63,438 bases of DNA, filler included, from Welwitschia mirabilis (GCA_051453625.1; 4 parts of one record of this genome joined end to end with filler, not necessarily neighbours in it), one strand, 5' to 3'; counted from the whole stretch's first letter, positions 7,108 through 63,438 are shown. Notes: generated from the sequence alone by a model not told the origin. Made by a program: numbers and translations.

Positions 7108-10100
7108 TAATGAGGATAAATTTTAATGTAAATCTCACTTATTAATAATGTGTTTTCATTATCTTTTTTTTTTTTTACAAATGAAAGTTAGAGGAATTTC
7201 ATTATTGAAGTATTAAAGTATAGACTCAAACAAAATACATAAGAAGTAAAATTACAAGGCTAAAAATAAACACTGATTACAGGGCTCTAGAGGCTAAAAC
7301 TTGCCAATTCAAGCTCAAAGATGCTAGTTAATCTAAACCAACATAAGTCTAACTAAAAAGCAACTCGAAAAATTAATTGAAAGCTCTTTAAGAGAAGCCA
7401 AAGGAGGCTCATTCCTCCATAGAACTACAAATCTATGAAAAGTCTTCACATAAAACATTCAGATAGAATTAATAGGTGGTAGGCATCGCATGGAGAAAGC
7501 TTAGTCTTTTATTAATGAAGATCCCACTTAAAAAAGAGATATGATGTGCTTATTTTATGGAACTTAGAGGGCTAGGAAACTAACTTTTAGACACTAAGTA
7601 AATAATAATAGGAGCTGGAAAACCAGCAAGCTAATAACTCCACATCCAAATTTCACAACATATAGAAAATCTAGATAAAACTATAGCTAAAAAAAATAGA
7701 AGATAAAGAACACTATAATTGTTGTAGAAGACTGCCCTCACTGTAAGCACTGATCAAAATTAAAAAAAGGGACATAGTCTGGGGGAGACTACCCAGAATC
7801 ATCACCATAGAGAGAAAAATTATTGATAAGGGATTCTGCTCAATAAATAAGATAACATACCCACTATTTGCTACTAAGCTCTTTTTTTCTAAGAATATTT
7901 TAGCTGTTGAATTAATATCAATTTGATAGATAGTTAAAACTTAATATCTTTGATAATCTAGGTAGTTTGAAAATCTTTTTGTTTGAAAATTTTATCATTT
8001 ATTGGTTTCCACACATGATAAATACAAGATGAGATAAGAAATTTTGTGATACCATGCAAGGTGGCCCTTGACCCAAATTTCTAATTTATCTAAATAAGAA
8101 CATCCTTCTAAGAGTATGCTAGAGGATGAAGATTTATCAAGTTTAAAGCTATTCTAAGAAGGAGAGCATAGGGAAGGAACTCAAAAAAAAGGTAATTTCT
8201 AGATTCATTAGCCGATCCATAGAGAGCACATAATGAGTCAGCTTGGATCCCTATCTTAAGGATTCTATCTTTAGTAAATAGTCTATTATTACATGCTAGC
8301 CATACAATAAAAGAATATTTTTGAAGGGTAAAGCACTTTCATACTAAATCATGCTAGTCTACCTTTGGATCTTGACTGCTTAAGTGGTAATAGATTGAGG
8401 CTATAGAAAAATGGGTTTCTAAAGCTTTTAAAACTAGTGAGTCAGCAGAAATCAGCAAAAATCCTCCTAGAAGGGGTTTGAGTTTTAGAATATTTTTGAT
8501 GATTTAAGAGGTATCATGTTTAATCTAATACTGCCAAATATTTAAATCTTTAAAAAAGTATTCTTTACACAATTTAACCTAAAGTGTGTTTTTCTCGAGC
8601 GCTAAATCCTACAGCTGAGTNNNNNNNNNNNNNNNNNTCACCAGGATGAAATTAGTTAGACCTAAATCCCCTATATTTTTCAGTTTTATCAAACTTTGCC
8701 AAGTAATAGGAGATTTTTTGGAATGATGTGAATTCCCTATCCACAGAAATCTTTTACATAGAGAGTTAATTTCATGTAGAGTTTTGTTTGGGAGAATAAA
8801 GACCCTACACCAGAAGGAGGATAGAGAGTGTAGCACAACTTTAATCAAAACACATCTGCCTGCATATGATAAGAATTTTATAGTCTAAGATTTAATTTCC
8901 CCCTTACCCTAAGGATATGATTTTCATTATCTTAATTATGAATTTTAAATAATAATAGATGTTTTCTTTATTAATATACTTACTAATTAATAGGTTAGTT
9001 GGTTAGTATGTTAGTAGGTTAGTATATGTATTTTATTATTATGTTTTAGGTACAAGATGTCATTTGGCATGGAGATAAAAGAGAAGGTTTATGTAATAGG
9101 AAAGTATTAATACCCCAAGCATATACCTATTCCTAAGCAGCAAAGAAGGAAAACAAAAAAATAAATAGGAATATAAGATTTAAACAATACCAAAGGTGGG
9201 GATCTTTCTAGCAAAATGTTCTAAGAATAGACTAAGCAAGAAGGTCAGAAAAGTAAGCTTTAGCTATTTTGAAAAGNNNNNNNNNNNNNNNNNNNNNNNN
9301 NNNNNNNNNNNNNNNNNNNNNNNNNNNNNNNNNNNNNNNNNNNNNNNNNNNNNNNNNNNNNNNNNNNNNNNNNNNNTCAGATTAATGGCAAGAAAGCTTC
9401 ACGCAAAAGTTTCAAGGCAAACTCCAACAATTAGTAATAGAGCTTATAGAAAAGGGACTATGGTATCAAAAAGAAAAATATCAAAGAGATCTTTTAGTAA
9501 AAAGGTTAGTCAGAACAATGAGTTTGATGTCCTTTATCACTCTCATCAAACCCTTTTTTTTTTTTGAAAAAAGTAACTATACTTGTTATGGCACTCTTAG
9601 GAGTCTATAGAAGAAATAATCTGAGCTAAGTTTGAAGTAAAAAGATTGTGTTAAAGAGCTAAATAGAGTATCTGAGGACATGGATCTCTACTCTAGTCAA
9701 ATGCAAATGAAACTTTCTAGGAAGCAGATTAATAAAGAGTTGAAGGGAGTTTTTGGTAGGAGAAAATCTCCTAAGAAATGAAGAGATAAAAGAAATCAAA
9801 GTAAATGGGTTAGATTTTCAGAAGGAATCTACTCAATGAGGAGTTCTTGTACAGAAATTCATGAACTTTGTGCAAGAAATTCATGGTCTATAGAATATAA
9901 AGTGATCAATGTAAGTAAGGAGAACCATGTTCTCATTTATGTAATTGTGGGATATAAAGTGCTGATTTTTAGTTTAAAAAGCAAGGACAGTTGCAAAGCA
10001 CTAAAATTGCAACATAATAATCTGCAACTCCTACTTTACTAAGCTTTTTATACTATGAATGTGCTAAGTGTGATTTATCCTTTAAGAATTCGATGTTTTA

Positions 10101-15477: not shown

Positions 15478-18400
15478 TGTTGTGATATGAATTTATGCAA
15501 TCCNNNNNNNNNNNTAGGTAAACATGTAAATCAAATAACATGTAAAAAAACACACTTAAGTATAGATGGGTGTTTACTTGAATGTCGTAATCCAACAAAG
15601 GCACTAGGATTAGAGTTAGAGAATTGATTTCCCAAAGTATTTTTAGTCTTTTGTCTTATAAAATTGGAAGGAAATGAATAAGTAAATATAATGCAAGATG
15701 AATGAATATGAAATATAGTAAACGAAAAAGGAAATGGAATTCTACTTAGATCCTAGTCCTTCTATTACAAAGACTACTTTCTCTATAACTTATATCAATT
15801 AAGAATATCATTTAACAAGTTATTAACTAACATAAACTATGATATTTATCTAAGCAAGAGTATGCAATATGCAATATGAAATGAAATAAAAATGCAATAC
15901 AAATCTACTACTAACCAATATCAACCTTAACAAAGGTTACCCTAATGATCTAAACAAATCACAGATCTGTCACTTAACTATGACCAACTTAAACCATAAT
16001 AGACATTCACAGAATTAGAATGAAAAGGAGAAATTATATTAGCTCAAAGAGTATTTAGAACATACATACACTTAAAATCAGAACAATAGCATCACAATGG
16101 AAGAGACTTAACCTAACACTAAGAAGACTACTTTCTGTAGCATTGAATAGAACTCTTTTCCTTCAATCCTCTATCACAAGTATCAAATATAAAATATGGT
16201 TTGGAAGTGAAGGATAAAAGAGTATTTATTATTTTACATTAAAAGTTATAGAACTGTAACACTAAATGTTGGTAAAGAAAACCCTAGCAGCACACATCAG
16301 TTGCTTAACCCCATTTACAAAGGTATTTATTTCAGAACATGCAAAAATATTTTTCCTTTCACTTGTCATCCAAATGATACAAGGAATGATACCACTTATC
16401 TCCATGTACTATATGTGCTGCTATCAGCTTCACAACCTTTACCCATGTAAGTGTCATCATCCTGCATGTCATGGAAATAACATAGTAAATGAGACCATGT
16501 GTCATTCCGGTCCATCATATGTTGCATGTGCTACATCTTGGTAAGTCGGAGTGCTATCGTCCTGACTATCATGGGGATGACACCTCTCCCAAGCTTCTCA
16601 AGTAGAATAAATTAGCCTTCTTTGCCATTAGTCTTTCTTGAATATGCTAAGTATCAAATCATGTATGATATACCCTAAATATATCAAGAATTACATGCTT
16701 TTATGATTATCCTATCGTCTATCTATAATTAGTAGAATTACACTTAAACCTGTATAAATATCCTATAAATATACTACAAATACACCATCAAATTCTTACA
16801 AATTAGCATCGTAACATAGCCCTCTACTTAGCCTTATCAGTCCCTAATAAAGTAGGCAATCAACTATATTGTGAGTCAATTTGACTAAGATAAATATCAA
16901 CTAAATAAATGGCATCTAAGTTCTATTTATCATATAGGAATAGATGACAAAATTCATTGATACAATTACTACTGTAGTCATAAGTCCCTTACTTAAACAC
17001 ATTATAATAGACCAAATAAATATCATACACCTAAATAAATTATAGAATGTAACAATGATAATATAGAAAAATGATAATGTGTATGCATAAGTTGAGAAAG
17101 TAATGTTGAAATCAATGTGTAATATTTAACTAGTAATAATCTCATAGAACAAGTCATGAAAAGTTCATTAATGTTTTCTATAAGGGTAAATTATAGGAGT
17201 AATCATAACATTATTTTTCCTTTAAATGATTTAAAACATAGCTACTGAAAAATTAGTGAGTGCTACTGTGCTCCTATTAAATGAATTCCATGAAATGTAT
17301 TCAAGTAACATGAAATTATATCCAAATAACTCATCATAAATATGTACCATAAAAGCTTAAATTAAGTCTTTAAAATTTAAATATGATACATTTCTACTTA
17401 ATATCTTAGAAGAAATCTCAAAGAGCTATCTTGTCCGCCCTCCACCCCCTCAAACAGGAAAAGTAAAATGTCCTAGATTGCATAAAGTGAAAAGAATGAT
17501 TATCGTTTCCTTTATCATGGGGATGACATATGTGAGATGATAGTGCTTAAAATAAGTTATTTGAATAAATTAGAAAAAATCCAAAAGTATTTGATAGTAA
17601 GCAAGTAATGGAAAAATAACAAAAAAATTAGAAATATGAGAAAAAGTAAAGAAATGTCTAGAAAATCATGACCATGGTGAAAGAAGCTTATGAGACATAA
17701 GAACGTATGAAGTAGAAAAAAGTAATGCTTCAAAGGATTCCTCTAATGTGTCTTAGAATCCATGAGTTTTTAAAATCTATAAGTGGATGTATATAAAACC
17801 ACAAAACCACATAGAAAAAACATTAGTATAAACAAAAAGATTACATCAATCAAACTGAAAGAAATGTATCAATTGAAAGTGCTAAAAAGAAAGACAACCT
17901 TTTAAAGAAAACCTCTGAGTGAAAATAAAAAGAAAACTAGAGGATTACCAAATGAACAGGTCCTAATGATATTGTGGAAAAAGATACTTTAATAACTTTA
18001 AAAATCCCAAATAAAATAATGAAAGAAAAAGATAATGAAAATAAACAACTAGGAGCATGAATAAAATTTTCTTACCTATCCAAAATTAATCCTTAGAAAA
18101 GTCCCTTAGAAGAAATCATAAAATCACTTGATAAGGATGCATGACATAATGTATGAATTCATAGAGTTCCACTCAAATGGACAATGATTATGATTATGTC
18201 ACATATGTCTAATATTATCAAATAATGAATGAAAAGATAAAAAGATGTTAAAACAGACAAAACAACACTATAATCTAGAAAAGTAAAGTAATCATGTAAA
18301 AGGACTACAAACAAATAAAAATGAATCTAGAAAACAAGCAATATCTTTGATAACACCAAGGACACCACTTATCTCATAGACTAACTATAATTTTATTCTT

Positions 18401-26448: not shown

Positions 26449-26548
26449 NNNNNNNNNNNNNNNNNNNNNNNNNNNNNNNNNNNNNNNNNNNNTTAATTAA
26501 TTAANNNNNNNNNNNNNNNNNNNNNNNNNNNNNNNNNNNNNNNNNNNN
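26449..26548. other. Artificial scaffold-joining spacer (44 N + TTAATTAATTAA + 44 N)
   Basis: Exactly 100 bp. The 12-mer has stop codons in all six frames. Identical spacers at 57680-57779 and 61407-61506. Confidence 0.97.
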
Positions 26549-31499: not shown

Positions 31500-34400
31500 T
31501 GGTTTCTTTTGGTAAATGGTAAAAATATATTGAAGTCATTTGTTATATAAATCATAAAGCAAATAGCTATGTTTATAATGATGACTAAACTCTAAAATCA
31601 ACATTTAAGAAAGATGATAAATACAAAGAAATATTTAAAACTTATCATACCTAAATATCACATGCTTAAAGAATCTTCATCCATCATTGAGTTTTACACT
31701 ATTCTTCAAATCTATTTCTTGTTATTTAGAGTGATTTATTTAAAGAGTGCTAATCACTTTTTGATTAAGCAATTTCTTCAGAGTATTTTGATTGTGTTTT
31801 GATTGTGTGCATTTGTCTAGGCATTTTTATAGGGTGAATATGGCCTATCATGCGTAAAGATTAGATGTCTTTTTTTTGAAATTCTTATAGCATCAAATGA
31901 GATATGAGTATGTTGAAGTATTTCTTTTATGTTAAACCAAGGCTAGATAGGCTAGTAATTTAATTCATTTCATTTTGAACTAATAAATTATGTGATGTTT
32001 CATTATATTGAATAAATCAAATGTCATATTTTACAAATTTTTCCCCTTTATAGTTTGTAGACTAATTACATTATCTATCAAAATCATCTGATTCTAGTAT
32101 GTCATGTTTACTTCTTTGAAGTAGGCCTGCATTTAGTAGATGTCTCATTAATACTTAATAATCATCATCATGTCATGGACCACACTACTCATACTTATGT
32201 ATAATAGACATTCATTTAGCTTGTATTTTTTCATCTTTATTGTCAAATCATGTTTGATATCTCTAAATGAGTAATGAATAAGTAGTTAAGCCTAACAAAT
32301 TAAATTATCCAAAAATAAATCTAAGAATAGCTTTAACAACTACATGTTTCTTTTTAGGATATCATGCATCATCTCCTATTTTCCTTGGATTAAATACATA
32401 ATATTTTATAGCATGGAATAATGAAATTGATGCACTAGAAAATTGTGTATATTCAATAGGGTTTTATAAGATGTTTTATAGGACATTTACATAAATTTAG
32501 ATGCAATTCTGAGGAGTATAGAGAATTAATATAAGATCTCAAAATATGCAATTCTTGTCATAACTAGAGGCATTTAAGGAATATTCTGATGCATATGGTT
32601 TTGGAGGAAAATCAATGATGTAAAAAAAGGCTTCTCTCTAGTGAAAAAGACAAAAAGAACTATTGTACCCTTTGTCATCCCCACAATAGCCAAAACAATA
32701 AAACTGTAGATGCCACATAAGAATGCTGATGTGGATTTGAGCCAAAACTATTGAGTCATCCTTTCTTAAGAGTTGCCATTCACTCATGTCATCCAAACAA
32801 TATCCAAGATGACAGTTGTAATTATCAACTAACCTTTATTCGTTTCATCCATTTCTTTCTTATAATTAAGTTTATTTTGCGTCACCTTTTATATGTCAGT
32901 GTTATTTCTTAACCCTATAAATAAGACTCCTTTGATCTCCTCTTTATATTCAATGCACAAGAAATTCTTATGATAGGAGATTAAAGGATGGGAGATTCAT
33001 CTTGAGAGTTGTAAAAAGATGTTTCTTTGGTAAAGATATATGCATCCTCCATTAAGGATTTGATGTTTTGTAATCTAGATTCTAGTTCCATTTAATATAA
33101 AACTCTATTTTCATTTATGTATTTAGATCTGTTATATGTCTCTTATGATTTATGCTGCTCTTGATCCAGTGATAGTTTCATTCGTGATATGGGTCTTAAT
33201 GGTATCCTTTGTTTAGGCTGAAAGAAAGTAGTTTAGATTCACTTTTCATTGCATTTGCATTTGCATTGCGTCTTTATTTTTTGCATTATTCTTAAAATTT
33301 AATTATAATTTTTTTTAGAAATTAATTCTAATTCTTCTCGCATAAGTATTCAATGAATTATAACATTCAAATTAACTTCCATCTATATTAGTATTCTGTA
33401 TTATGTAGATATCTATTTTTAGTTGTAAATGACAAGATATTCATGAGTGTAATCATTTTCATAAATATGCATCAAAACATCTTGGTGCTATTACCAAGGA
33501 AGGCAACTAATTAGTATGAGGATTGTTGTCATTTGGGTGAGTAAATTGGATTCCTATTTGATTATTTATCTGTAGTGACACTATATTTTTAATTAGGAAT
33601 TTTTTATTTTCAATTTTCATTTTTTTAGTTTTTGATTTTTCATAGTCTGAAATAATAGTTATCATTTTCCTTGTCATTTCCACAACAAGATGGATGATCA
33701 CTCATTTGTTATTTTTTCATTTTATTTTTAAATTTTAGATTTTTTTATTAGCATAATAATAATTTTTCCATTTTCTATGTTGTTCGCATAACCGGAAGGA
33801 CAACAGTGTGTGTATTTTTTGCTTATAGCTTTCTGCTTTATTGAATTTCTGTTTCTTATTTTCTATGTTTATAATACTTTATGTCATCCCCATGATAGTT
33901 ATGACAACTATTTGTTTTTTTAGATTTCATTTTCTATTGTTTTCTATTTTTAGGATGTTGTGACATGATCAGCCTAAGAAAGAAATATTAGAGAGAAAGG
34001 TGGTTAATTGAAGAGAACATTAGAGAAGGACTAGTAAACTTTAGAATCAAATTGAGAAAACAATCTCTAGGTGTATATAATCTTCTTTTTAAATTTTTTT
34101 TAAATCCAATTCCATTCAAGAAAATTTTGGAGAATATAGTAATTTTTCAATGTCGAGCACTGCATAAAAGTAAAAACAAGTTGTAGGATCTTCAACTCCT
34201 AGTCCTAATATGAACTTTTTCATTAGGGAATTACTAGTAAATAGGAAACAAGAAATTCAAAACCCTTTCGATTTACCACTAGGAGATGATGTTAAGTTCA
34301 AGAATCTAAATTCCTATCCAATCTTTTATGATGAGTATAATGAGGATCTCCTCCAACACATTATAGATATAGAACTATTAATTATTACCTCCAAAAATAG

Positions 34401-37400: not shown

Positions 37401-39535
37401 AACATGGTCACCATAATGTCCTACTATAAGTAAACTGGTGAAAATTTTCCTAAAAGGAATCTTTGGCAATGTAATATAGTACTATGAGAACTTTTAGTTG
37501 GCCATGCTTCATAGGTCCTTACTTCTATAACTGTAGTTACACTCCCCTCATCATGCATAGATAGATAATAAAATAATAAAAATGTAGAGGCTACAAGATT
37601 AGTGATGTTCCTGGTGTTATCAAAATCATGTTTGTTTTCTAGACTCTTCTTCTTCTATATAATCATTTCATTTCTTAAGATTCAGGTGTTTGCTTAGAGA
37701 TGTAAGTAGGTAAGTTTATTTTTAAGTAACTCTTTTACCTTATCATTCATTGTTTAAAGAATTTTACTTTTAGTGATATTATAACCACTTCCTCATCAAG
37801 GGAATTATTTTATACATCAAGTCATGCATTTTTCAATTAAGTAATGTTATGATTTCTTTCATAAGAGTCTACTAGGCTAAAATTTTGGGTAGATAGACTA
37901 TCTTATTTATGTTTCTTTATTTCCAATCCTTTTTTTTTCTTTTGTTGTTTGATTAGTTATTTCAAAGTCATTTCCGTAATTAACTAAACATGTAATAAAG
38001 AATATAAAACTTTTACTTACAGCATTAAGTCTATCACACTCATCAAATCTATCATTTCATGCATTCAAGTTTTATAAAGATCCTTACATTATACATGTGT
38101 TATTTATTACTAGAGCAATATATGAAGAAAAGAAAAATGGATTTCTTATAAGGGTAGCTTTAAAGTTGGAAATTAACCATTTAGAAAAAGCATAGGAAGC
38201 TTTCACATTCCAAACTTGAAAATTTGGTTTGGAATTCTTATTTTTCTAATTTGCAATGTTATCTTTTCTTTTGGAAATAATGTTTTGAAAATTTTAAATT
38301 GTAGAACTAAGAGGATTTTATTTAAGATGCATATGATTGAGTAACCTTATAGTCATCTCTCTTACATTTCTCTACCTTCATTCTTTCCAATTTCTATTTT
38401 TGTGTATCTAANNNNNNNNNNNNNNNNNNNNNNNNNNNNNNNNNNNNNNNNNNNNNNNNNNNNNNNNNNNNNNNNNNNNNNNNNNNNNNNNNNNNNNNNN
38501 NNNNNNNNNNNNNNNNNNNNNNNNNNNNNNNNNNNNNNNNNNNNNNNNNNNNNNNNNNNNNNNNNNNNNNNNNNNNNNNNNNNNNNNNNNNNNNNNNNNN
38601 NNNNNNNNNNNNNNNNNNNNNNNNNNNNNNNNNNNNNNNNNNNNNNNNNNNNNNNNNNNNNNNNNNNNNNNNNNNNNNNNNNNNNNNNNNNNNNNNNNNN
38701 NNNNNNNNNNNNNNNNNNNNNNNNNNNNNNNNNNNNNNNNNNNNNNNNNNNNNNNNNNNNNNNNNNNNNNNNNNNNNNNNNNNNNNNNNNNNNNNNNNNN
38801 NNNNNNNNNNNNNNNNNNNNNNNNNNNNNNNNNNNNNNNNNNNNNNNNNNNNNNNNNNNNNNNNNNNNNNNNNNNNNNNNNNNNNNNNNNNNNNNNNNNN
38901 NNNNNNNNNNNNNNNNNNNNNNNNNNNNNNNNNNNNNNNNNNNNNNNNNNNNNNNTGTATCTAAACTTTTATAAGTGCAATCGATGGTTTCATATCCTAC
39001 CTATCTATGGAGAAACAATGGTGGATAATGATTTTAACTTCAATTGCTTTCTCCTTTTCCACTTTATTTGCTCAGTTGTTATGCAATTTTTATTTGATTC
39101 GGTTGGCATGTAAAGAAAGAGAAATAAAAGAAGAAATAAGTTATGTGATTGCATAGTTACTTTTTAATACCTTTCTTATTTTAGTTCAAAATATTTCTAC
39201 TTTGATTTTTTTGGTATTTTTATAGATAAAGATGGAAAGAGAAACCAAATAAGTAAAAACACTAGAAATGCTTCATTTGGATGTAGAGAAGGGAAGAGAA
39301 ATTTAGGAATAAGTAAGTTACATGGTTATATATTTGTTCTCTTTTCTTATTTTGTTATCAACGCATGGAACTTGTCCTTTCTTATTATTTAGGAAGAAGT
39401 AAGTTACACAGTTAGTTGCTTTTTTAAATGAAAATAAAATATTAAGGTTAAAAACTATATTTAAAAATAATTTTAAAAAAGGAGCAATGTTTCCTCAGAC
39501 ATATCTGTCCTTGGGAGTTGGGCTCTTAGCCCAAA
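31500..39535 (-). mobile_element. Helitron-like element copy 2, internally deleted and interrupted by a family C LTR element; 5' terminus at 39535, 3' end not resolved
   Basis: 31845-32427 aligns with 29190-29865; 38230-39390 aligns with 30600-31190. LPMLFLNG (FPTLFP-G-like) at ~38180-38200. The minus strand starts A|TTTGGGCTAAGAGCCCAA (hairpin) at 39535. Confidence 0.75.
32428..37980 (+). mobile_element. Athila-like family C element: 5' LTR 32428-33479, PBS 33483-33500, gag ~34150-35700, aspartic protease ~35750-36170, no RT/RH/IN, 3' non-coding region; 3' LTR missing
   Basis: TGATGCAC...AAAACA followed by TGGTGCTATTACCAAGGA. gag QNPFDLP...NLNSYPIFY...EDLLQHI. Protease KFDDPGAV...LIEIGTSVNIMPL...YPLLLG. 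37400-37950 is homologous to the family A 3' non-coding region (reverse complement of ~1650-2220). Confidence 0.85.
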
Positions 39536-39539
39536 TTAT

Positions 39540-39730
39540 GTTTTTATTTAATTAAAAACTATTATGTAATAAATACACTTTTCTTTTATTAGAAAACTAT
39601 TATGTAGTAGATGTGCTTTTCTTTTATTAGAAAACCGTTATGTAGTAAATATGCTTTTCGTTTATTAGAAAATCGTTATGTAATCATTGTATTTTTTAAT
39701 TATAAAATCATTCTATAATAATTATGCTTT
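39540..39730. repeat. 38-bp minisatellite (left arm of the inverted duplication)
   Basis: Repeats of TTTTCTTTTATTAGAAAACCGTTATGTAGTAAATATGC-like units; reverse complement of 44570-44770. Confidence 0.85.
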
Positions 39731-40274
39731 TGAAAAATCATTTTACTAATCAAAATTTTAGTTCTTAAGAGGCACTTTTACACAAATCAAAAATTTTTTT
39801 AATGAGGAACTCTTCCACTAATTACAATGTTAGTTTTCGAGAACATTATCTTATTACTTTTTCAACATTTAAAAATGAGATAATCTTTTATATGTTTTAG
39901 TCAATCTAAAAGGAATGAACCATCTTTAGAACATCACATGCTTCAGAAGATCACTTTAATCATAAAATTACCATCAAAGTTTTCCCATATATCAAAATTT
40001 ATAATACAATACTTTATAAAAATACATACATTTCCAATCAACCATCAAAACATAAGCATCGACATGGCTAAGATATTCACCTCAAGGGATAAAATATATT
40101 ATAATTAGTTTTAGTAAAGCACATAAGCATAAGTCTTATNNNNNNNNNNNNNNNNNNNNATAGTGTAAGAAGAATGCATCGTAACATACCCTTAATTATC
40201 TCACAAAACACATTCTCTAAACTTAACCAATATGCATAACTTAACTGAAACATTATTATATTATGAAAACCTTA

Positions 40275-40631
40275 TTTGGCTGAGAGGCCATCGCCAGTCT
40301 GTGATTTGTCTGGAACAATATTACACCTATTTTTTAAAAATTTTATTTTTTGCTTAAAAAACTTATAAAACATCAAACTTAATTAATTTGGAAATGGTAG
40401 AGGTAATAAATGTTGAAACAACAATTATAATAAATTTTGAAACGGAAAACATTAATTTCTTTTAAAGCATTTAACCTCATAATTTTTGAAAAGGTAAACT
40501 TATGACCCCATTTTCACCCTTTAAAAAGGGCCAAACAAATGCACATAAACAAAGCATGAATAAAAGGTGGAAAACATTGATACATCTCAGCCAACTTATA
40601 GATACATATTTATGATATATATCTAAGCTAG
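40275..40631 (+). mobile_element. ~360-bp non-autonomous Helitron-like element, copy X1
   Basis: A|TTTGGCTGAGAGGCCA...TCTCAGCCAA...CTAG|T with no TSD. The empty site CCTTA|TCATAC is present in the paralogous arm (reverse complement of ~43573-43583). Confidence 0.85.
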
Positions 40632-40939
40632 TCATACATCATTTCAAAAAATCAAAACAAAAACAAATATTTAAAGCTTTATATGCAATGTTATAATAGC
40701 TTAGCTACTGTAAGGTGTTATGTTTTATGTCCAAGATTGCCTTTTTGAAAAGAAGAAAATGTTTACAATTCTTGAATTTGATCAAATACAACTGAAAGAT
40801 TCTCATAGGCAGGATTGGAGGTTTCTAAAGCTTCCAATCTACATAAACGAAAAAAAACTAGATTTTTGCTTAAAATTCCATTTTCCTCTTCAATGTTTCC
40901 CTTCCACAACATAATTGAGAGTTGCTCACTATGATATTA

Positions 40940-41353
40940 ATGACTTGTATGATGGAAATACTAAATGACAGTTGTAATCTCCATATCCTTGCCAAAATAG
41001 TGCTTCACAAATGTAGGGCTTTTCCTGTGCATGGCGAAAGGAAGTTTAAATGTGTGAGCTACAGACACACATTTGGATCTTGGCAAGCTCTAGGCAATGG
41101 TTGCTTTAAGAAATAGCAACAATAGGTGAGGCTGTGTAGGAGCCAATGTAAACATTTTGCATCGCTACTGATCTACTTGTGCATGCTCAAGGGTTATATT
41201 TCCTCTGCAACTGAAGCAGCAGCTGAAACTAAGATAATCCAGCTTAAACAATCATCGTCTTCTTCTTCATCTCCATCCATGCATGCCCAAAGGTCATTCA
41301 AGTGTTTGAAATGCGATCACAGATTCCCTTCAAGTTGGGCTCTTAGCGGATAA
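40940..41353 (+). pseudogene. C2H2 (QALGGH-type) zinc-finger pseudogene, inverted paralog of 43020-43412
   Basis: MTCMMEILNDSCNLHILAKIVL...KFKCVSYRHTFGSWQALGNGCFKK* then ...HAQRSFKCLKCDHRFPSSWALSG*. Premature stops, deletions and lost zinc ligands. Confidence 0.9.
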
Positions 41354-41481
41354 ATTTTGAGTGAACTCTAGATGCGTTTTTTGAATTCCTCCATTAGAGT
41401 AATCCGAGCAAGCACCTTTAGCATTACTTGTGTTAAGTAGGAAGAAAATTTTCCAATGGATAATGTTTTTTAAGGAGATAA

Positions 41482-41801
41482 TTTGGCCAAGAGGTCATCT
41501 CGAGTCAGTGATTTGTCTAGGATAGTGTTATGCCTATTTTTAAAAAAAAATATTTTGAGTTAAAAAACTTATAAAACATCAAACTTAATTTGGAAATAGT
41601 AGAGGTAAAAAAATGTTGAAACAGTAATTCTAATAGATTTTGAAATGGGAAACCTTAATTTCTTTTGAAACATTTAACCTTATAATTTTGAAATAGTAAA
41701 CCCAATTTATCCTTAATTTCTTTTGAAATAGTAAATATCAAACAAATGCATACAATCAAAACATGATTAAAAGTTGGAAAACATTGATAAATCTTGGCTA
41801 G
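41482..41801 (+). mobile_element. Non-autonomous Helitron-like element, copy X2 (3'-shortened)
   Basis: A|TTTGGCCAAGAGGTCA..., homologous to X1. Similarity ends at TCTTGGCTAG|T, within the sub-terminal repeat. Confidence 0.8.
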
Positions 41802-43019
41802 TTTAGCAAACATCTATCTTTGTATTTTCAATCGAAACATTATGATTATATTATTATGTGAACAAAATTATAAATAACATATAATTTGAAGGATAATTAA
41901 AGTATTTCAGCATTTCATAAAACTTTTCCCCTTGCTTCTGATTTAATGATTTCGATAAGTAAATAATGCTTGTCATTCTGTTCTCCTAATACTAAACACT
42001 TCAAATTAATACTCGAAGATAAATATATGATTTCAGGTATAGCTATTTCAAAGATTCGGTAAGAAGGCTTGGTACTTTGCTTTCTCCATAGTTTAACAAT
42101 CTTAATTTTATTTTTAGGATTACAGTTTAGTTTTCATTTAAAAATATCAGTTTATTTTAGGTGTAGAAATGCAGCTAATAAAGAAGTGAGAATGTAATTT
42201 AGATAGGTCTCATAATATTGGGATTTTTGTAAGGTTTAGGTTAAGGTTAAGGTTTAATTTACATTTAAAAATGTCAATTTGAGCTTTAGACAATAATTTA
42301 ATAAGGAGAGAATGGTGCTAGACATTTTAGATTTCCCACCAGTGTAAAGACAGGAGATTTGCCTAGAAGCAGCCACCCTTGCAAGACTGCGTAATAGCTT
42401 ACTGATCGAGCGCTCTTGCAGTCCTGGGGTTCTCATAGTGTTAAGACCTTTATAGATTCCTAAAGCGAGATTCCTAACACAATCTATGTGAAATTTGAAA
42501 ATTTTTAAGGCTAAAATGTACTTATATCCATCATAACCCATAACCCAAGATTAACTTGAAAACAAATCTTAAGTAATTTCAGAGTGTGTATTATTTCAAT
42601 AAGTGTTATTGTTATAGAAAAGATTCAATTTAGTGGTCCATCTAATCCAAAGTTAAGTTTTGTAGCAAAGATTAATTAATTTTCCAATTGCTCTTGTTAC
42701 ATTAAAATTCAATTTAAAGAAATATTGAAAGGAACTTACAGCACATTGCAGTATAAAGTAATATTGAAAAATTCATTTGGATTGGAAAAACATAAATGAA
42801 AATACATTCTCCCTAAAAAATCTTAAAAGACGCTTATGAAGCAGCAAGACACTCAACCACAGCATTATAATTCTTCATCCATCTGGAATATGTGCATACT
42901 TCAACCTTCATTTGTTCATATTAAATTATCTTCATCTTTATCTAGCGGGAGCGGCCAATTCAAATCTAGAGAGACAAAACTTCGACAGACAAAACTTCAA
43001 GGGAACCTGTGACCGCACT

Positions 43020-43412
43020 TCAAACACTTGAATGACCTTTGGGCGTGCGCGGACGGAGCACTAGCAGTGCAGACTGTTTACGGTGACTTCTACGCAGCCT
43101 CACCTGTTGTTGCTGTTTCTTCAAGCAGCCACTGCGAGAGCGATGTCCGCCCAGACCCTGCCAAGATCCGAATGTCTGTCCGCAGGTCACACATTTAAAC
43201 TTCGTTTCCCCATGCGGAGGTGAAGAAGGACACGATGATTTTTTGCACTGGAGCGTCTCAGCTTCAGCTGACGCTTCGGTTGCAAAGGAAACAGCCGAAG
43301 GCTGGAAGCCAGAAGGCCTTTCAGACAGGAGAAGACCTGCATCTGCGAGGGCCGTTTCTGCGAGGAGATGGAGATCACGGCTTTCATTCAGCGTCTCCGC
43401 CATACGAGTCAT
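43020..43412 (-). CDS. Plant QALGGH-family zinc-finger protein, 130 aa, single finger (possibly a young pseudogene)
   Basis: GC- and CpG-rich intronless ORF. Finger FKCVTCGQTFGSWQGLGGHRSRSGC. N-terminal Leu-rich DLHLLAE motif. A second finger (FKCLKCGHRFP*) is out of frame at ~42997-43032. Confidence 0.8.
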   Translation of the reverse strand: MTRMAETLNESRDLHLLAETALADAGLLLSERPSGFQPSAVSFATEASAEAETLQCKKSSCPSSPPHGETKFKCVTCGQTFGSWQGLGGHRSRSGCLKKQQQQVRLRRSHRKQSALLVLRPRTPKGHSSV

Positions 43413-43559
43413 TACTATCGCAGTGAGAGAACTCTAGATTATGTTGTCAAGATAAAAAAAAAAAAATGTTAACACCCTACGGTAGCTTAGCCGTTACGAC
43501 GTTGCATATAAAAGTTTACATTAAACACAAATTCGTTTGCGGTTTTTTTTTTTTTTCCT

Positions 43560-43697
43560 GGGTTGTTATTATGTATGATAAGGTTTTCATAATGTAATAA
43601 CGTTTAAGTTTTGCATATTGATTATATTTTTTTGGGTTGTTATTATGTATGACAAGGTTTTCATAATGTAATAACGTTTAAGTTATGCATATTGATT
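43560..43697. repeat. 74-bp-period tandem duplication upstream of the zinc-finger gene
   Basis: GGGTTGTTATTATGTATGA...TGCATATTGATT starts at 43560 and again at 43634. The inverted arm has a single copy. Confidence 0.9.
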
Positions 43698-44056
43698 ATT
43701 GTATAATTTCAGAGAATGTGTTATGTGAGATAACCAGCAGTATGTCACGATACATTCTCTTTACATGATGGTACATATCTTGCATAGTGATAAAGCTTAT
43801 GTGTGTATGCTTTACTAAAACTAACCATAATATGCTTTATCTCTTGAGGTGAAAATTTTAGTCATAGGATGTTTATGTTTTAATGATTGATTGAGAATGT
43901 GTGTGTTTTTTCTAAAGTAATGTATTATATATTTTTGATATGTGTGCAAACTTTGATGGTAATTTTATGATTAAAGTGATTGTGCAGTATGTGATGTTCT
44001 AAAGGTTATTCATTCCCTTTAATGTTGATTAAAACATGTTAAAGATTGTCTCATAA

Positions 44057-44418
44057 CTAGCTTAGGTATATATTATAAGTATATAACTATAAGTTGGCTG
44101 AGATGTATCAATGGTTTCTGCCTTTTGGCCACGTTTTGATTGTGCACATTTGTTTGGCCCTTTTTAAAGTGTGAAAATGGCTCCATAAAATTAGGTTTAC
44201 CATTTCAAAAATTATGAGGTTAAATGTTTCAAAAGAAGTTAAGGTTTTTCGTTTCAAAATTTATTAGAATTGTTGTTTCAACATTTTTTACATCTACCAT
44301 TTCTAAATTAAGTAAGTTTGATGTTATATAAGTTTTTTTAAACTAAAAATAATTTTTAAAAAATAGGCATAACACTATCCCGAACAAATCATCGACTGGG
44401 GATGGCCTCTCGGCCAAA
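44057..44418 (-). mobile_element. Non-autonomous Helitron-like element, copy X3
   Basis: The minus strand reads A|TTTGGCCGAGAGGCCA...TCTCAGCCAA...CTAG|T. The element is absent at the corresponding position (~39872) of the other arm. Confidence 0.85.
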
Positions 44419-44569
44419 TTAAATGTTGAAAAGTGGTAAGATAATGCTCTTGAAAACTAAAATTGTAATTAGTGGAAGAGTCCCTCTTAAAAATGAAAAT
44501 TTTGATTAGTGTAAGAGTGCCTCTTAAGAACTAAAATTTTGATGAGAAAAATGGTTTTCCAATTTTAGA

Positions 44570-44890
44570 AAAGCATAATTATTATAGAATGATTCTCTAA
44601 TTAAAGAAAAACATAGTTATTACAAAACGGTTTTCTAATAAAAGAAAAGCATATTTATTACATAACGGCTTTCTAATAAAAGAAAAGTGTATTTATGACA
44701 TAACGGTTTTCTAATAAAAGAAAAGTGCATTTATTACATAATAGTTATCTAATTAAAGAAAAACAAAATTATCAGATAATGTTTTTCTAAACAAATAAGC
44801 ATAACTATTATATAACCATTTTTATAATTAAAGAAAAGTGTAATTATTACATAATGGTTGTCTAGAAAAATATAATTATTGCATAATAGT
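44570..44890. repeat. 38-bp minisatellite (right arm), degenerating distally
   Basis: TTTTCTAATAAAAGAAAAG units at 44631, 44669 and 44707 (period 38), followed by diverged units. Confidence 0.85.
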
Positions 44891-45034
44891 TTTTACTACT
44901 AAAAAGGATCTAAGATAACAGTTGAAAATTTCTTCATAAAGTATAAAAACTATAGTATAAACCTATCAAAGTAGTTAAAAAAAAAAGTTACTCCTCTAAT
45001 CGTTGTATTTCATAAATGGATGACATGATGGTTA

Positions 45035-45394
45035 TTTGGCTGAGAGGCCATTACTGGTGATTTGTCCGAGATAGTGTTATGCCTATTTTTTACAATTTTT
45101 ATTTTTAGTTTAAAAAAAACTTATAAAACATCAAACTTACTTAATTTGGAAACGGTAGAGTAATAAATGTTGAAACAGCAATTCTAATAAATTTTGAAAT
45201 GGGAAACCTTAATTTATTTTGAAACATTTAACCTCATAATTTTTGAAATGTTAAACCTAATTTTATGGGGCCTTTTTCACTATTTGAAAAGGGTCAAACA
45301 AAAGTAGACAATTAAAATGCGATCAAAACATAGAAAACATTGATAAATCTTGACCAACTTACAGATACATACTTATAATATATATCTAAGCTAG
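45035..45394 (+). mobile_element. Non-autonomous Helitron-like element, copy X4
   Basis: A|TTTGGCTGAGAGGCCA...TCTTGACCAA...AGATACATA-N7-TATATATCT-AAGCTAG|T. Confidence 0.85.
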
Positions 45395-45396
45395 TA

Positions 45397-45562
45397 AATA
45401 ACCCTTATGGTAGATTAACCTCATACACAATGGCTATCATAATAACCTCTGTGTTAGATTAGCCTCTTACATGTCAGTTATGTAAATAAGCCTTATGTTA
45501 TATCATCCTTTCACATGGCAGTTCTGTGAGTAACCTCTAAGCTAGATCAACCTCTTACACAA
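45397..45562. repeat. ~44-bp degenerate tandem repeat, about 4 units
   Basis: AATAACCYYTRTG.TAGAT.A.CCTCTTACA-like units at ~45397, 45441, 45485 and 45529. Confidence 0.75.
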
Positions 45563-57679: not shown

Positions 57680-57779
57680 NNNNNNNNNNNNNNNNNNNNN
57701 NNNNNNNNNNNNNNNNNNNNNNNTTAATTAATTAANNNNNNNNNNNNNNNNNNNNNNNNNNNNNNNNNNNNNNNNNNNN
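57680..57779. other. Artificial scaffold-joining spacer
   Basis: 44 N + TTAATTAATTAA + 44 N. Confidence 0.97.
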
Positions 57780-61406: not shown

Positions 61407-61506
61407 NNNNNNNNNNNNNNNNNNNNNNNNNNNNNNNNNNNNNNNNNNNNTTAATTAATTAANNNNNNNNNNNNNNNNNNNNNNNNNNNNNNNNNNNNNN
61501 NNNNNN
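61407..61506. other. Artificial scaffold-joining spacer
   Basis: 44 N + TTAATTAATTAA + 44 N. Confidence 0.97.
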
Positions 61507-62193: not shown

Positions 62194-63438
62194 AGAAGTT
62201 TGATGATTTTATACAGAAATAGGGATACTCCAAATGTGATTATGATCATTGTGTGTACCTTCACATGAATGCTTGAAGTACGATTGTCATTCTTATGTTG
62301 TATGCTGATGATATGTTAGTTGCTAGAAATAACATGAAAGAAATCAAAAAATTGAAGCATGAAATGTCCAAGACTTTTGCCACTAAAGATCTTCAACCAA
62401 CAAAACAAATCCTTGGAATGAGGATTGTTAGAGACAGATCACGTCGCAGGTTATGGTTAAGTCAACTTGAATATATTGGCAAGGTTTTGAAACATTTTAA
62501 TATGGTAGATTGTGAACCTGTTTGTACTCCTCTTACTACACATTTCCAATTAACTCTTCGAGGTTGTCCTAATTCAGAGAAGAAGAAGACAAAAATCACA
62601 TGTGTGCCTTATGGGTCAGCTGTATGAAGTTTAATATATGCTATGGTCTGTACGAGAACAGACATTGCTCAAGCAGTGGGAGTTGTTTCACATCTCATTA
62701 GTAATCCTAGGAAAGAGCATTGAGAAGCTATAAAATGGGTTCTTCATTACTTGAAGGGAACCCAACATATGAGTTTGTGCTTTGGCAATACTAATTTGCA
62801 TATTACAGGGTATGTGAATGCTGATTATGCTAGTTGCAGGGCTACCAGAAGGTCTACTATAGGGTACATGTTTGCTTTTGGTGGTGGAGCTGTTAGCTGG
62901 ATGTGCTGTCTATAATCTGATGGTGCTATTTCCACTACGGAAGCTGAGTATGTCACCTTGACAGAAGCTGCTAAGGGGACGTTATGGCTGCATGGTTTTG
63001 TTGGCTGGTTGGGTTTTCGTCAAGCCAAGTTTGTCTTGCACTGTGAAAGTCAGCGTGCTATACATCTAGCGAAGAATCTTGTTTATCATGCTAGAACTAA
63101 GCACATTGATGTTAAATATCATTTCATCATGCACAAGATCAAGAAATGCCTATTAGGTGTTTGGAAAATTCACATGCATGCAAATTATGCTGATTTTCTG
63201 ACAAACGCTGTTGATGGCACAAAACAAGAGGCATGTTGTAATGGAACTGGATTGGGGACGTGATCTAAAAGTATGGAAGTAGGCATTTCTTGTAGCTTCA
63301 AAAGAAGTTGTTCTTGAAGACTCGCCAAATTTGTCTTGAAGTGGGAGAATGTTGGAAAAGTGAAGCCAAATTTGTCTTGTTTATATTGTAATGTTACGTT
63401 TTAACATTGAACCCCCATTTTTTGTAATATTGTAAAAC
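62194..63438 (+). mobile_element. Ty1/copia (Tnt1/Tork-like) RT-RNaseH pseudogene, PPT 63338-63349, 3' LTR from 63350
   Basis: LYADDML, KQILGMRIVRDR, VPYGSAV*SLIYAMVCTRTDIAQAVGVVS, STTEAEY, AIHLAKNLVYHARTKHIDVKYHFI, with several stops. GAAGTGGGAGAA directly precedes TGTTGG. Confidence 0.93.

Follow-up and report, generated by a model that had tools for sequence, protein, structure and literature searches.

The window analysed here, a 63-kb (63,438-nucleotide) stretch of AT-rich DNA that looks plant-derived, contains four related copies of a short element, X1 to X4, which we interpret, with a probability of about 0.6, as old, immobile relics of a non-autonomous Helitron-like DNA transposon, of the rolling-circle or 'peel-and-paste' kind, whose ends follow the architecture of Helitron2 (HLE2, one of the two groups of Helitron-like elements, HLEs). 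Discrete insertion without target-site duplication, defined asymmetric ends and a lack of coding capacity together point to a non-autonomous Helitron-like element, and this rolling-circle-type reading is well supported for so small a sample. The original prediction for this DNA had proposed a rolling-circle family with hybrid termini that combine the Helitron2 and canonical Helitron architectures. The family itself is borne out by the missing target-site duplications, the common ends and the lack of a RepHel transposase in the window, whereas the hybrid is not: the terminal architecture fits Helitron2 as published and is not really a hybrid. X1 to X4 probably constitute a small new family of this known type, set apart from those already reported by their descriptions rather than by a sequence search of catalogues.

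Searching the whole window by blastn with X1 and X4 as queries recovered the four copies where they had been proposed to lie (Table 1), with pairwise identities of 76.7-85.7%. All of them (4/4) start with TTTGG, and a 17-nt 5' motif, TTTGGCYRAGAGGYCAT, occurs four times in the window, every time at a copy, where 0.02 occurrences would be expected. The predicted clustering is likewise real, as four random starts fall within a 4760-bp span with P = 0.0016 (200,000 trials). The most conserved part of the family is its central repeat, for which Tandem Repeats Finder reports a period of 49 in X4: alignment columns 91-240 are 87-95% identical, vs. 77-85% at the ends. Blastn revealed no further copies in the window besides a single 49-nt fragment (31795-31843; 81.6% identity), which has no recognisable ends and was not counted. 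A second candidate (15838-15858), which matches the 3' motif with three mismatches but ends in CAAG and has no upstream similarity, was also left out of the count. A metagenome scan for more copies with a two-block pattern returned 0 loci, and two metagenome loci matching a 20-nt pattern have only the 20-mer in common with X1 and X4 and were set aside as chance hits.

That the copies are discrete insertions can be read from an inverted segmental duplication (approximately 39534-41336 vs. 44770-42993, in blocks 74-88% identical), whose left arm carries X1 and whose right arm carries X3, with the spacer harbouring X2, and X4 situated outside the right arm. In the right arm the X1 site is unoccupied, as is the X3 site in the left one, and the flanks are unrelated among the four copies; X1 to X4 therefore represent four separate insertions and not duplicated DNA. 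Excising X1 or X3 gives a sequence equal in length to the respective empty site, where the flanks abut with no duplicated bases, and it follows that neither insertion produced a target-site duplication, in agreement with what had been claimed for the family. X1 and X3 are thus discrete insertions of 357 and 362 bp, the 37-nt tail at the 3' end included. The two copies are 85.7% identical, vs. 77-85% for the duplication arms, and their insertion appears to be of about the same age as the duplication.

The ends of the inserted sequence can be compared with the published definition of Helitron2, which describes elements with T as the first base, two hairpins and asymmetric inverted repeats of 8-15 bp, where the 5' repeat, at 0-2 bp from the end, gives rise to the 5' hairpin, and the 3' repeat occupies a subterminal position directly upstream of the 3' hairpin (Bao and Jurka 2013, PMC3627910). 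In all four copies the first bases are predicted to adopt a common fold, ..(((((....))))), in which nucleotides 3-7 pair with nucleotides 12-16 to form a 5-bp stem (-1.8 to -5.3 kcal/mol). The 5' hairpin of the original prediction is therefore present as a shared fold, but only in X3 and X4 does it outperform shuffled sequences, with 49, 68, 0 and 10 of 200 shuffles folding as well for X1, X2, X3 and X4, respectively. In X1 an inverted copy of nucleotides 2-11 lies 37 nt from the 3' end, and its match is perfect (10/10) and was equalled by 1/500 shuffles; at the homologous place X3 matches at 9/10 positions (0/500 shuffles) and X2 at 8/10 (57/500). The asymmetric inverted repeat can accordingly be upheld, but in X4 it does not rise above chance. 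It starts at nucleotide 2, or at nucleotide 1 under an alternative boundary phase, and so lies within the 8-15 bp and 0-2 bp of the Helitron2 definition. A DNA duplex between the 5' and 3' repeats is predicted to be stronger than the 5' hairpin in 4/4 copies (-13.4, -9.6, -9.1 and -4.6 vs. -3.3, -1.8, -5.3 and -3.3 kcal/mol, the first pair of values being that of X1).

Pairing potential of this kind might be expected to leave compensatory changes in the two repeats, a check that came with the original prediction and that gave a negative answer. The variable positions of both repeat arms are CG, TG or CA (in alignment column 7: TG, CA, CG and TG), and the arms match in X1 and X2, are half-decayed in X3 and are mismatched in X4. 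These states are explained equally well if an ancestral CCGAGA/TCTCGG pair, with one CpG in each arm, underwent CpG decay. Since cytosine deamination makes the arms match half the time, there is no evidence of selection on pairing in these copies.

At the opposite end, a second stem-loop begins 4 nt past the 3' inverted repeat and is AT-rich and imperfect, with about 9 bp and a mismatch. It is predicted just where it had been described, directly after the repeat, but is no better than the folds of shuffled sequences. The last nine alignment columns, CTAAGCTAG, are 100% identical in the three copies with an intact 3' end, such that X1, X3 and X4 terminate in a homologous CTAG. This does not extend to X2, which had also been listed among the copies ending in CTAG: its resemblance to the other copies stops at 41794-41801, within the 3' inverted repeat or where that repeat ends, and the CTAG found there is the repeat in mutated form (TCTTGGCTAG), not homologous to the CTAG of the other three. 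The sequence that follows X2 (past 41801) is no more tail-like than shuffles, with 321, 926 and 747 of 1000 shuffles scoring as well, and we therefore rejected the idea that X2 is a full-length copy with a decayed tail.

The copies contain no open reading frame (ORF), and none of the 63 ORFs of at least 70 amino acids in the window matches a Rep or helicase family, on which grounds we consider the copies non-autonomous. They also contain no tRNA and give no Rfam match at E<=1; together with the absence of a target-site duplication, this led us to reject a short interspersed nuclear element (SINE), another tRNA-derived sequence or a known RNA as their source.

Although the inserted length is clear, the boundary phase is ambiguous by 1-2 nt. 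With X1, the empty site is recovered without mismatch at offset -1 and at the cost of one mismatch at the other offsets from -4 to +1, and for X3 offsets 0, +1 and +2 tie with two junction mismatches each. Over both empty sites three parsings tie at three mismatches, namely TTTGG..CTAG inserted in A/T, TTGG..CTAGT in T/N and ATTTGG..GCTA in T/G (a slash marks the junction), and A/T is plausible as one of these three equally parsimonious solutions. Under the simplest phase A is found on the 5' side of 4/4 copies and T on the 3' side of the 3/3 intact ones, the frequency of the AT dinucleotide in the window being 0.12. In terms of whole sites, one phase gives A/T in 4/4 and another gives T/C, T/T, T/T and T/A. 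Insertion between A and T, as first proposed, is hence compatible with the flanks under one phase, but it is one of three that tie, and neither empty site is AT. Further upstream, the 5' flanks read T-W-A in 4/4 copies, a post-hoc pattern drawn from four sites.

The empty sites and the two ends also bear on explanations that leave Helitrons aside. Multiplication of a non-mobile sequence by local segmental or tandem duplication would suit the confinement of all copies to 5.1 kb, alongside the inverted segmental duplication and several tandem arrays; yet X1 and X3 are each missing at the corresponding position of the opposite arm, the four flanks are unrelated and the boundaries are sharp and common to the copies, all of which makes such an origin extremely improbable. 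Scarcely more credible is a MITE (miniature inverted-repeat transposable element), in the sense of a cut-and-paste terminal-inverted-repeat derivative with an extra 3' tail. The presence of a 10-nt inverted repeat near both ends and the termination of X2 at the inner repeat would both be in keeping with a MITE, and DINE-1-like elements are described as having formerly been misannotated in this way (PMC4067079). A MITE is nonetheless largely refuted by the two empty sites without target-site duplication and the insertion of the whole 357 or 362 bp, by the asymmetry of the repeat (1 nt from one end vs. 37 nt from the other), and by the tail, which is kept in 3/3 full copies down to its invariant last nine columns.

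A more serious contender, which we regard as possible but doubtful, is a non-autonomous family of canonical Helitron1 (HLE1) with an atypical 5' end, TT in place of TC, for which the hairpin and inverted repeat would be a family-specific extra. It would account for the ...CTAAGCTAG terminus at 3/3 intact 3' ends with a stem-loop directly upstream, for the A and T flanks under the simplest phase and for the missing target-site duplication; moreover, HLE1 elements are the prevalent group in flowering plants according to HELIANO Table S10 (PMC11417382), and a similarly mixed look has been described for the lepidopteran Hel-2 (PMC4344730). Against it stands the TT start in 4/4 copies, as no phase yields the 5'-TC given as the hallmark of HLE1 (PMC11417382, PMC5148889), and so do the 5' hairpin and asymmetric inverted repeats, which are absent from Helitron1 as characterised alongside Helitron2 (PMC3627910). 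In addition, the 3' stem-loop, an imperfect and AT-rich one, stands only 6 nt from the end, vs. a published palindrome of 16-20 bp located 10-15 bp from the end, and AT is found at neither empty site. We consider it unlikely that the copies stem from a lineage truly joining Helitron2 ends with Helitron1-type cleavage and integration (CTAG/, A/T), whether as an HLE1-HLE2 intermediate or as a convergent form, in a flowering plant; in such a lineage X2 could represent premature termination at a newly made CTAG, with the tetranucleotide itself read by the transposase. The canonical-Helitron half of the predicted hybrid is the weaker one, given that CTAG and A/T depend on the phase chosen and rest on three ends, that the CTAG of X2 is non-homologous and that the empty sites lack AT.

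Several observations weigh against the Helitron2 assignment that we favour. Canonical Helitron1 has as its signature a CTAG 3' end combined with A...T flanks, and while HLE2 insertion is reported between T and T (HELIANO, PMC11417382), the flanks are A...T under the simplest phase and the alternative phase gives T/T at only 2/4 sites. The present-day empty sites are G/T and A/A, their junction bases differing from those of the filled sites, although non-AT empty sites are unsurprising with arms that are 15-23% diverged. The inverted repeat of X4 matches at 7/10 positions, not above chance, and the 10-nt length of the repeat is below the 11-18 nt range that HELIANO gives for HLE2 (PMC11417382). 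The 3' stem-loop is weak: its energies range from -1.0 to -3.2 kcal/mol, and 67, 173 and 97 of 200 shuffles fold equally well. The 63 ORFs of the window include no sign of an autonomous partner, and the sample comprises only four copies, three of them with an intact 3' end. Finally, Table S10 of HELIANO, a survey from 2024 (PMC11417382), records HLE2 in 3/62 sampled flowering-plant genomes, with 442, 11 and 3 elements, and HLE1 as dominant in flowering plants, such that HLE1 is the likelier group a priori should the host be an angiosperm. HLE2, for whose clade HELIANO gives DUF6570 as a marker, is reported in land plants by the same source (PMC11417382), and in a flowering-plant host a Helitron2-type family would be uncommon but with precedent.

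For X1 to X4 as Helitron2-type relics, we propose that a RepHel transposase, presumably encoded elsewhere in the genome, would nick the 5' end, which starts with T and forms a short hairpin, and would unwind one strand until halted by the 3' signals. These would comprise the asymmetric inverted repeat, which could pair with the 5' terminal bases to open the 5' hairpin, the short stem-loop and the ...CTAAGCTAG end. The resulting single-stranded or circular intermediate would then integrate in AT-rich DNA, at 5' flanks of the T-W-A type, without target duplication. Such a scheme, to us the most likely one, follows the proposal of Bao and Jurka (PMC3627910), according to which the repeats pair with each other, thereby opening the 5' hairpin and determining where rolling-circle replication ends. 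For the family described here we infer the transposase, what each signal does, the precise phase of cleavage and whether the lineage is HLE2 or HLE1.

Table 1. Coordinates of the element copies, their terminal features and empty sites, and other annotated features of the window (a slash within a sequence or junction marks the insertion point).
Feature	Position	Strand	Details
X1	40275-40631	+	Full-length, 357 bp; blastn and alignment
X2	41482-41801	+	Without the 37-nt 3' tail; blastn alignment stops at 41794
X3	44057-44418	-	Full-length, 362 bp; blastn and alignment
X4	45035-45394	+	Full-length, 360 bp; outside the inverted duplication, past its right arm
X1 5' asymmetric inverted repeat	40276-40285	+	Overlaps the 5' hairpin, predicted stem 40277-40281 / 40286-40290
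X1 central degenerate tandem repeat	40356-40499	+	Three units of 47-49 bp; repeat finder
X1 3' subterminal inverted repeat	40585-40594	+	TCTCAGCCAA; 10/10 complementary to 40276-40285
X1 3' stem-loop (predicted)	40599-40625	+	AT-rich, -3.2 kcal/mol; followed by 6 nt (AGCTAG)
X1 paralogous empty site	43645-43657	-	Right arm, CCTTG/TCATACAT, junction 43653/43652
X3 paralogous empty site	39866-39881	+	Left arm, CATTTAA/AAATGAGAT, junction 39872/39873
Zinc-finger ORF	43023-43433	-	137 codons, single plant-type C2H2 finger
zf-RVT retroelement fragment	8111-8338	-	E=3.5e-10
Ty1/copia remnants	62277-62624 and 62916-63263	+	RVT_2 fragment, E=3.7e-17, plus adjoining piece with about 50% identity to copia polyproteins of flowering plants

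The element cluster had been described as surrounding the only gene of the window. The 137-codon zinc-finger ORF on which this rested is present, in the right arm of the duplication and with a degraded inverted copy in the left arm (approximately 41019-41336), but it is an orphan: its zf-C2H2_6 match reaches 24.1 bits, under the Pfam cut-off of 25, and a search for protein relatives yielded none (0/78 candidates scored). Because of this lack of detectable relatives, the ORF may represent either part of a gene or a gene specific to its lineage. GC content varies between 18 and 35% across 2-kb bins of the window, which is AT-rich and contains numerous N-runs; it is 0.349 in the 42001-44000 bin vs. 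approximately 0.18-0.30 in the adjacent ones, with the zinc-finger ORF region (42900-43440) being the GC-rich part. The copia piece finds its best named relatives among flowering-plant proteins, at about 45-56% identity, and judging from copia RVT_2, zf-RVT and the plant-type C2H2 finger the window looks like plant DNA.

Additional repeats surround the element cluster. Tandem arrays of a 38-bp unit are located at 39537-39731 and 44553-44864 (5.2 and 8.2 units, respectively) and are mirrored between the arms, and an array of a 37-bp unit lies at 44447-44543 (2.6 units); both kinds are satellite-like and flank the cluster. A 74-bp tandem unit (43559-43699; 1.9 copies, 97% matches) adjoins the X1 empty site and is found in the right arm only, not in the left, and a 44-bp tandem repeat (45441-45559; 2.7 units, 74% matches) begins 47 bp past the 3' end of X4. 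The spacer that separates the duplication arms contains 64 nt (42346-42409, plus strand) that match positions 1089-1152 of the bacterial-type large-subunit rRNA model RF02541 (E=3.1e-09 in a search of 201 nt) and are probably an organelle-derived insert; at 34.3 bits, the match does not reach the gathering score of 50. Elsewhere in the window, N-runs of 44 nt occur in three pairs (26449-26548, 57680-57779 and 61407-61506) with 12 bases between the members of each pair, a regularity that resembles masking or padding of the assembly more than ordinary gaps.

To our knowledge, Helitron2/Helentron-type elements were long held to be absent from land plants, and the standard plant Helitron finders seek TC...CTRR ends and miss elements of the Helitron2 type. 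A small family built in this way, in the AT-rich genome of a plant, would lengthen the short list of plant HLE2, and it is also relevant to annotation, as such elements are easily overlooked or mislabelled as MITEs or canonical Helitrons. Should the CTAG end and A/T target prove true genome-wide, the family could help relate the two Helitron groups and show which terminal signals the transposase reads. With four decayed copies as evidence, its significance is modest.

Comparison with known systems places X1 to X4 at varying distances from both groups. Canonical plant Helitron1 elements likewise lack a target-site duplication, end in CTAG after a stem-loop and can have A and T flanks, but they start with TC, whereas the copies analysed here have a TT start, a 5' hairpin, an end-to-subend inverted repeat and a weak stem-loop 6 nt from the end. 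The lepidopteran Hel-2, an insect and viral element likened here by description only, is closer in that it is reported with a 3'-CTAG, A/T flanks, a 3' stem-loop, 5' and subterminal inverted repeats and an internal repeat, and differs in its TC start and (CTGT)n microsatellite (PMC4344730). With TC...CTAG ends plus subterminal repeats in one element, Hel-2 shows that the mixed look has precedent in animals.

On the Helitron2 side, the HINE/DINE-1-like elements described from mite and insect carry palindromic repeats in subterminal position, at 2-4 nt from the 5' end and 38-60 bp from the 3' one, together with a short 3' palindrome, tandem repeats in the centre and boundary Ts, much as seen here, and HINEs are reported to far outnumber their autonomous partner (PMC4067079). 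Their repeats are 12-15 bp long, their target is TT and they are known from animals in that account, in contrast to the 10-nt repeat, the CTAG end and the T/T site readable at 2/4 positions in our family (PMC4067079). FoHeli1 and FoHeli2 of Fusarium oxysporum differ in being autonomous and 5-6 kb long, with a TCAG start, an ATTTT end and a 3' repeat that itself lies within a hairpin (PMC5148889), and they have no sequence similarity to X1 to X4. As described, they nevertheless share the inverted recurrence of the 5' terminal hairpin bases, at 38-51 bp from the 3' end, as well as an uncertainty of one T at the 5' boundary. Their insertions follow TNAT, to which TTAT, TAAT, TAAT and TTAT would correspond here if the first T is counted as host (PMC5148889).

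The Helitron2 families themselves provide the reference for the architecture that we propose. The CTAG 3' end, the flowering-plant-like host and the lack of a RepHel partner in the window set X1 to X4 apart from them; the 3' repeat of Helitron2 is described at approximately 20-30 nt from the end vs. 37 nt here, and the Chlamydomonas families insert after TTTT where the 5' flanks found here read T-W-A (PMC3627910). In the remaining features of that description the two agree: like X1 to X4, Helitron2 comprises short non-coding elements with T as the first base, a repeat that forms a hairpin at the 5' end, a subterminal 3' repeat with a 3' hairpin (in X1 to X4 a weak predicted stem-loop) after it, and insertion without target-site duplication (PMC3627910).

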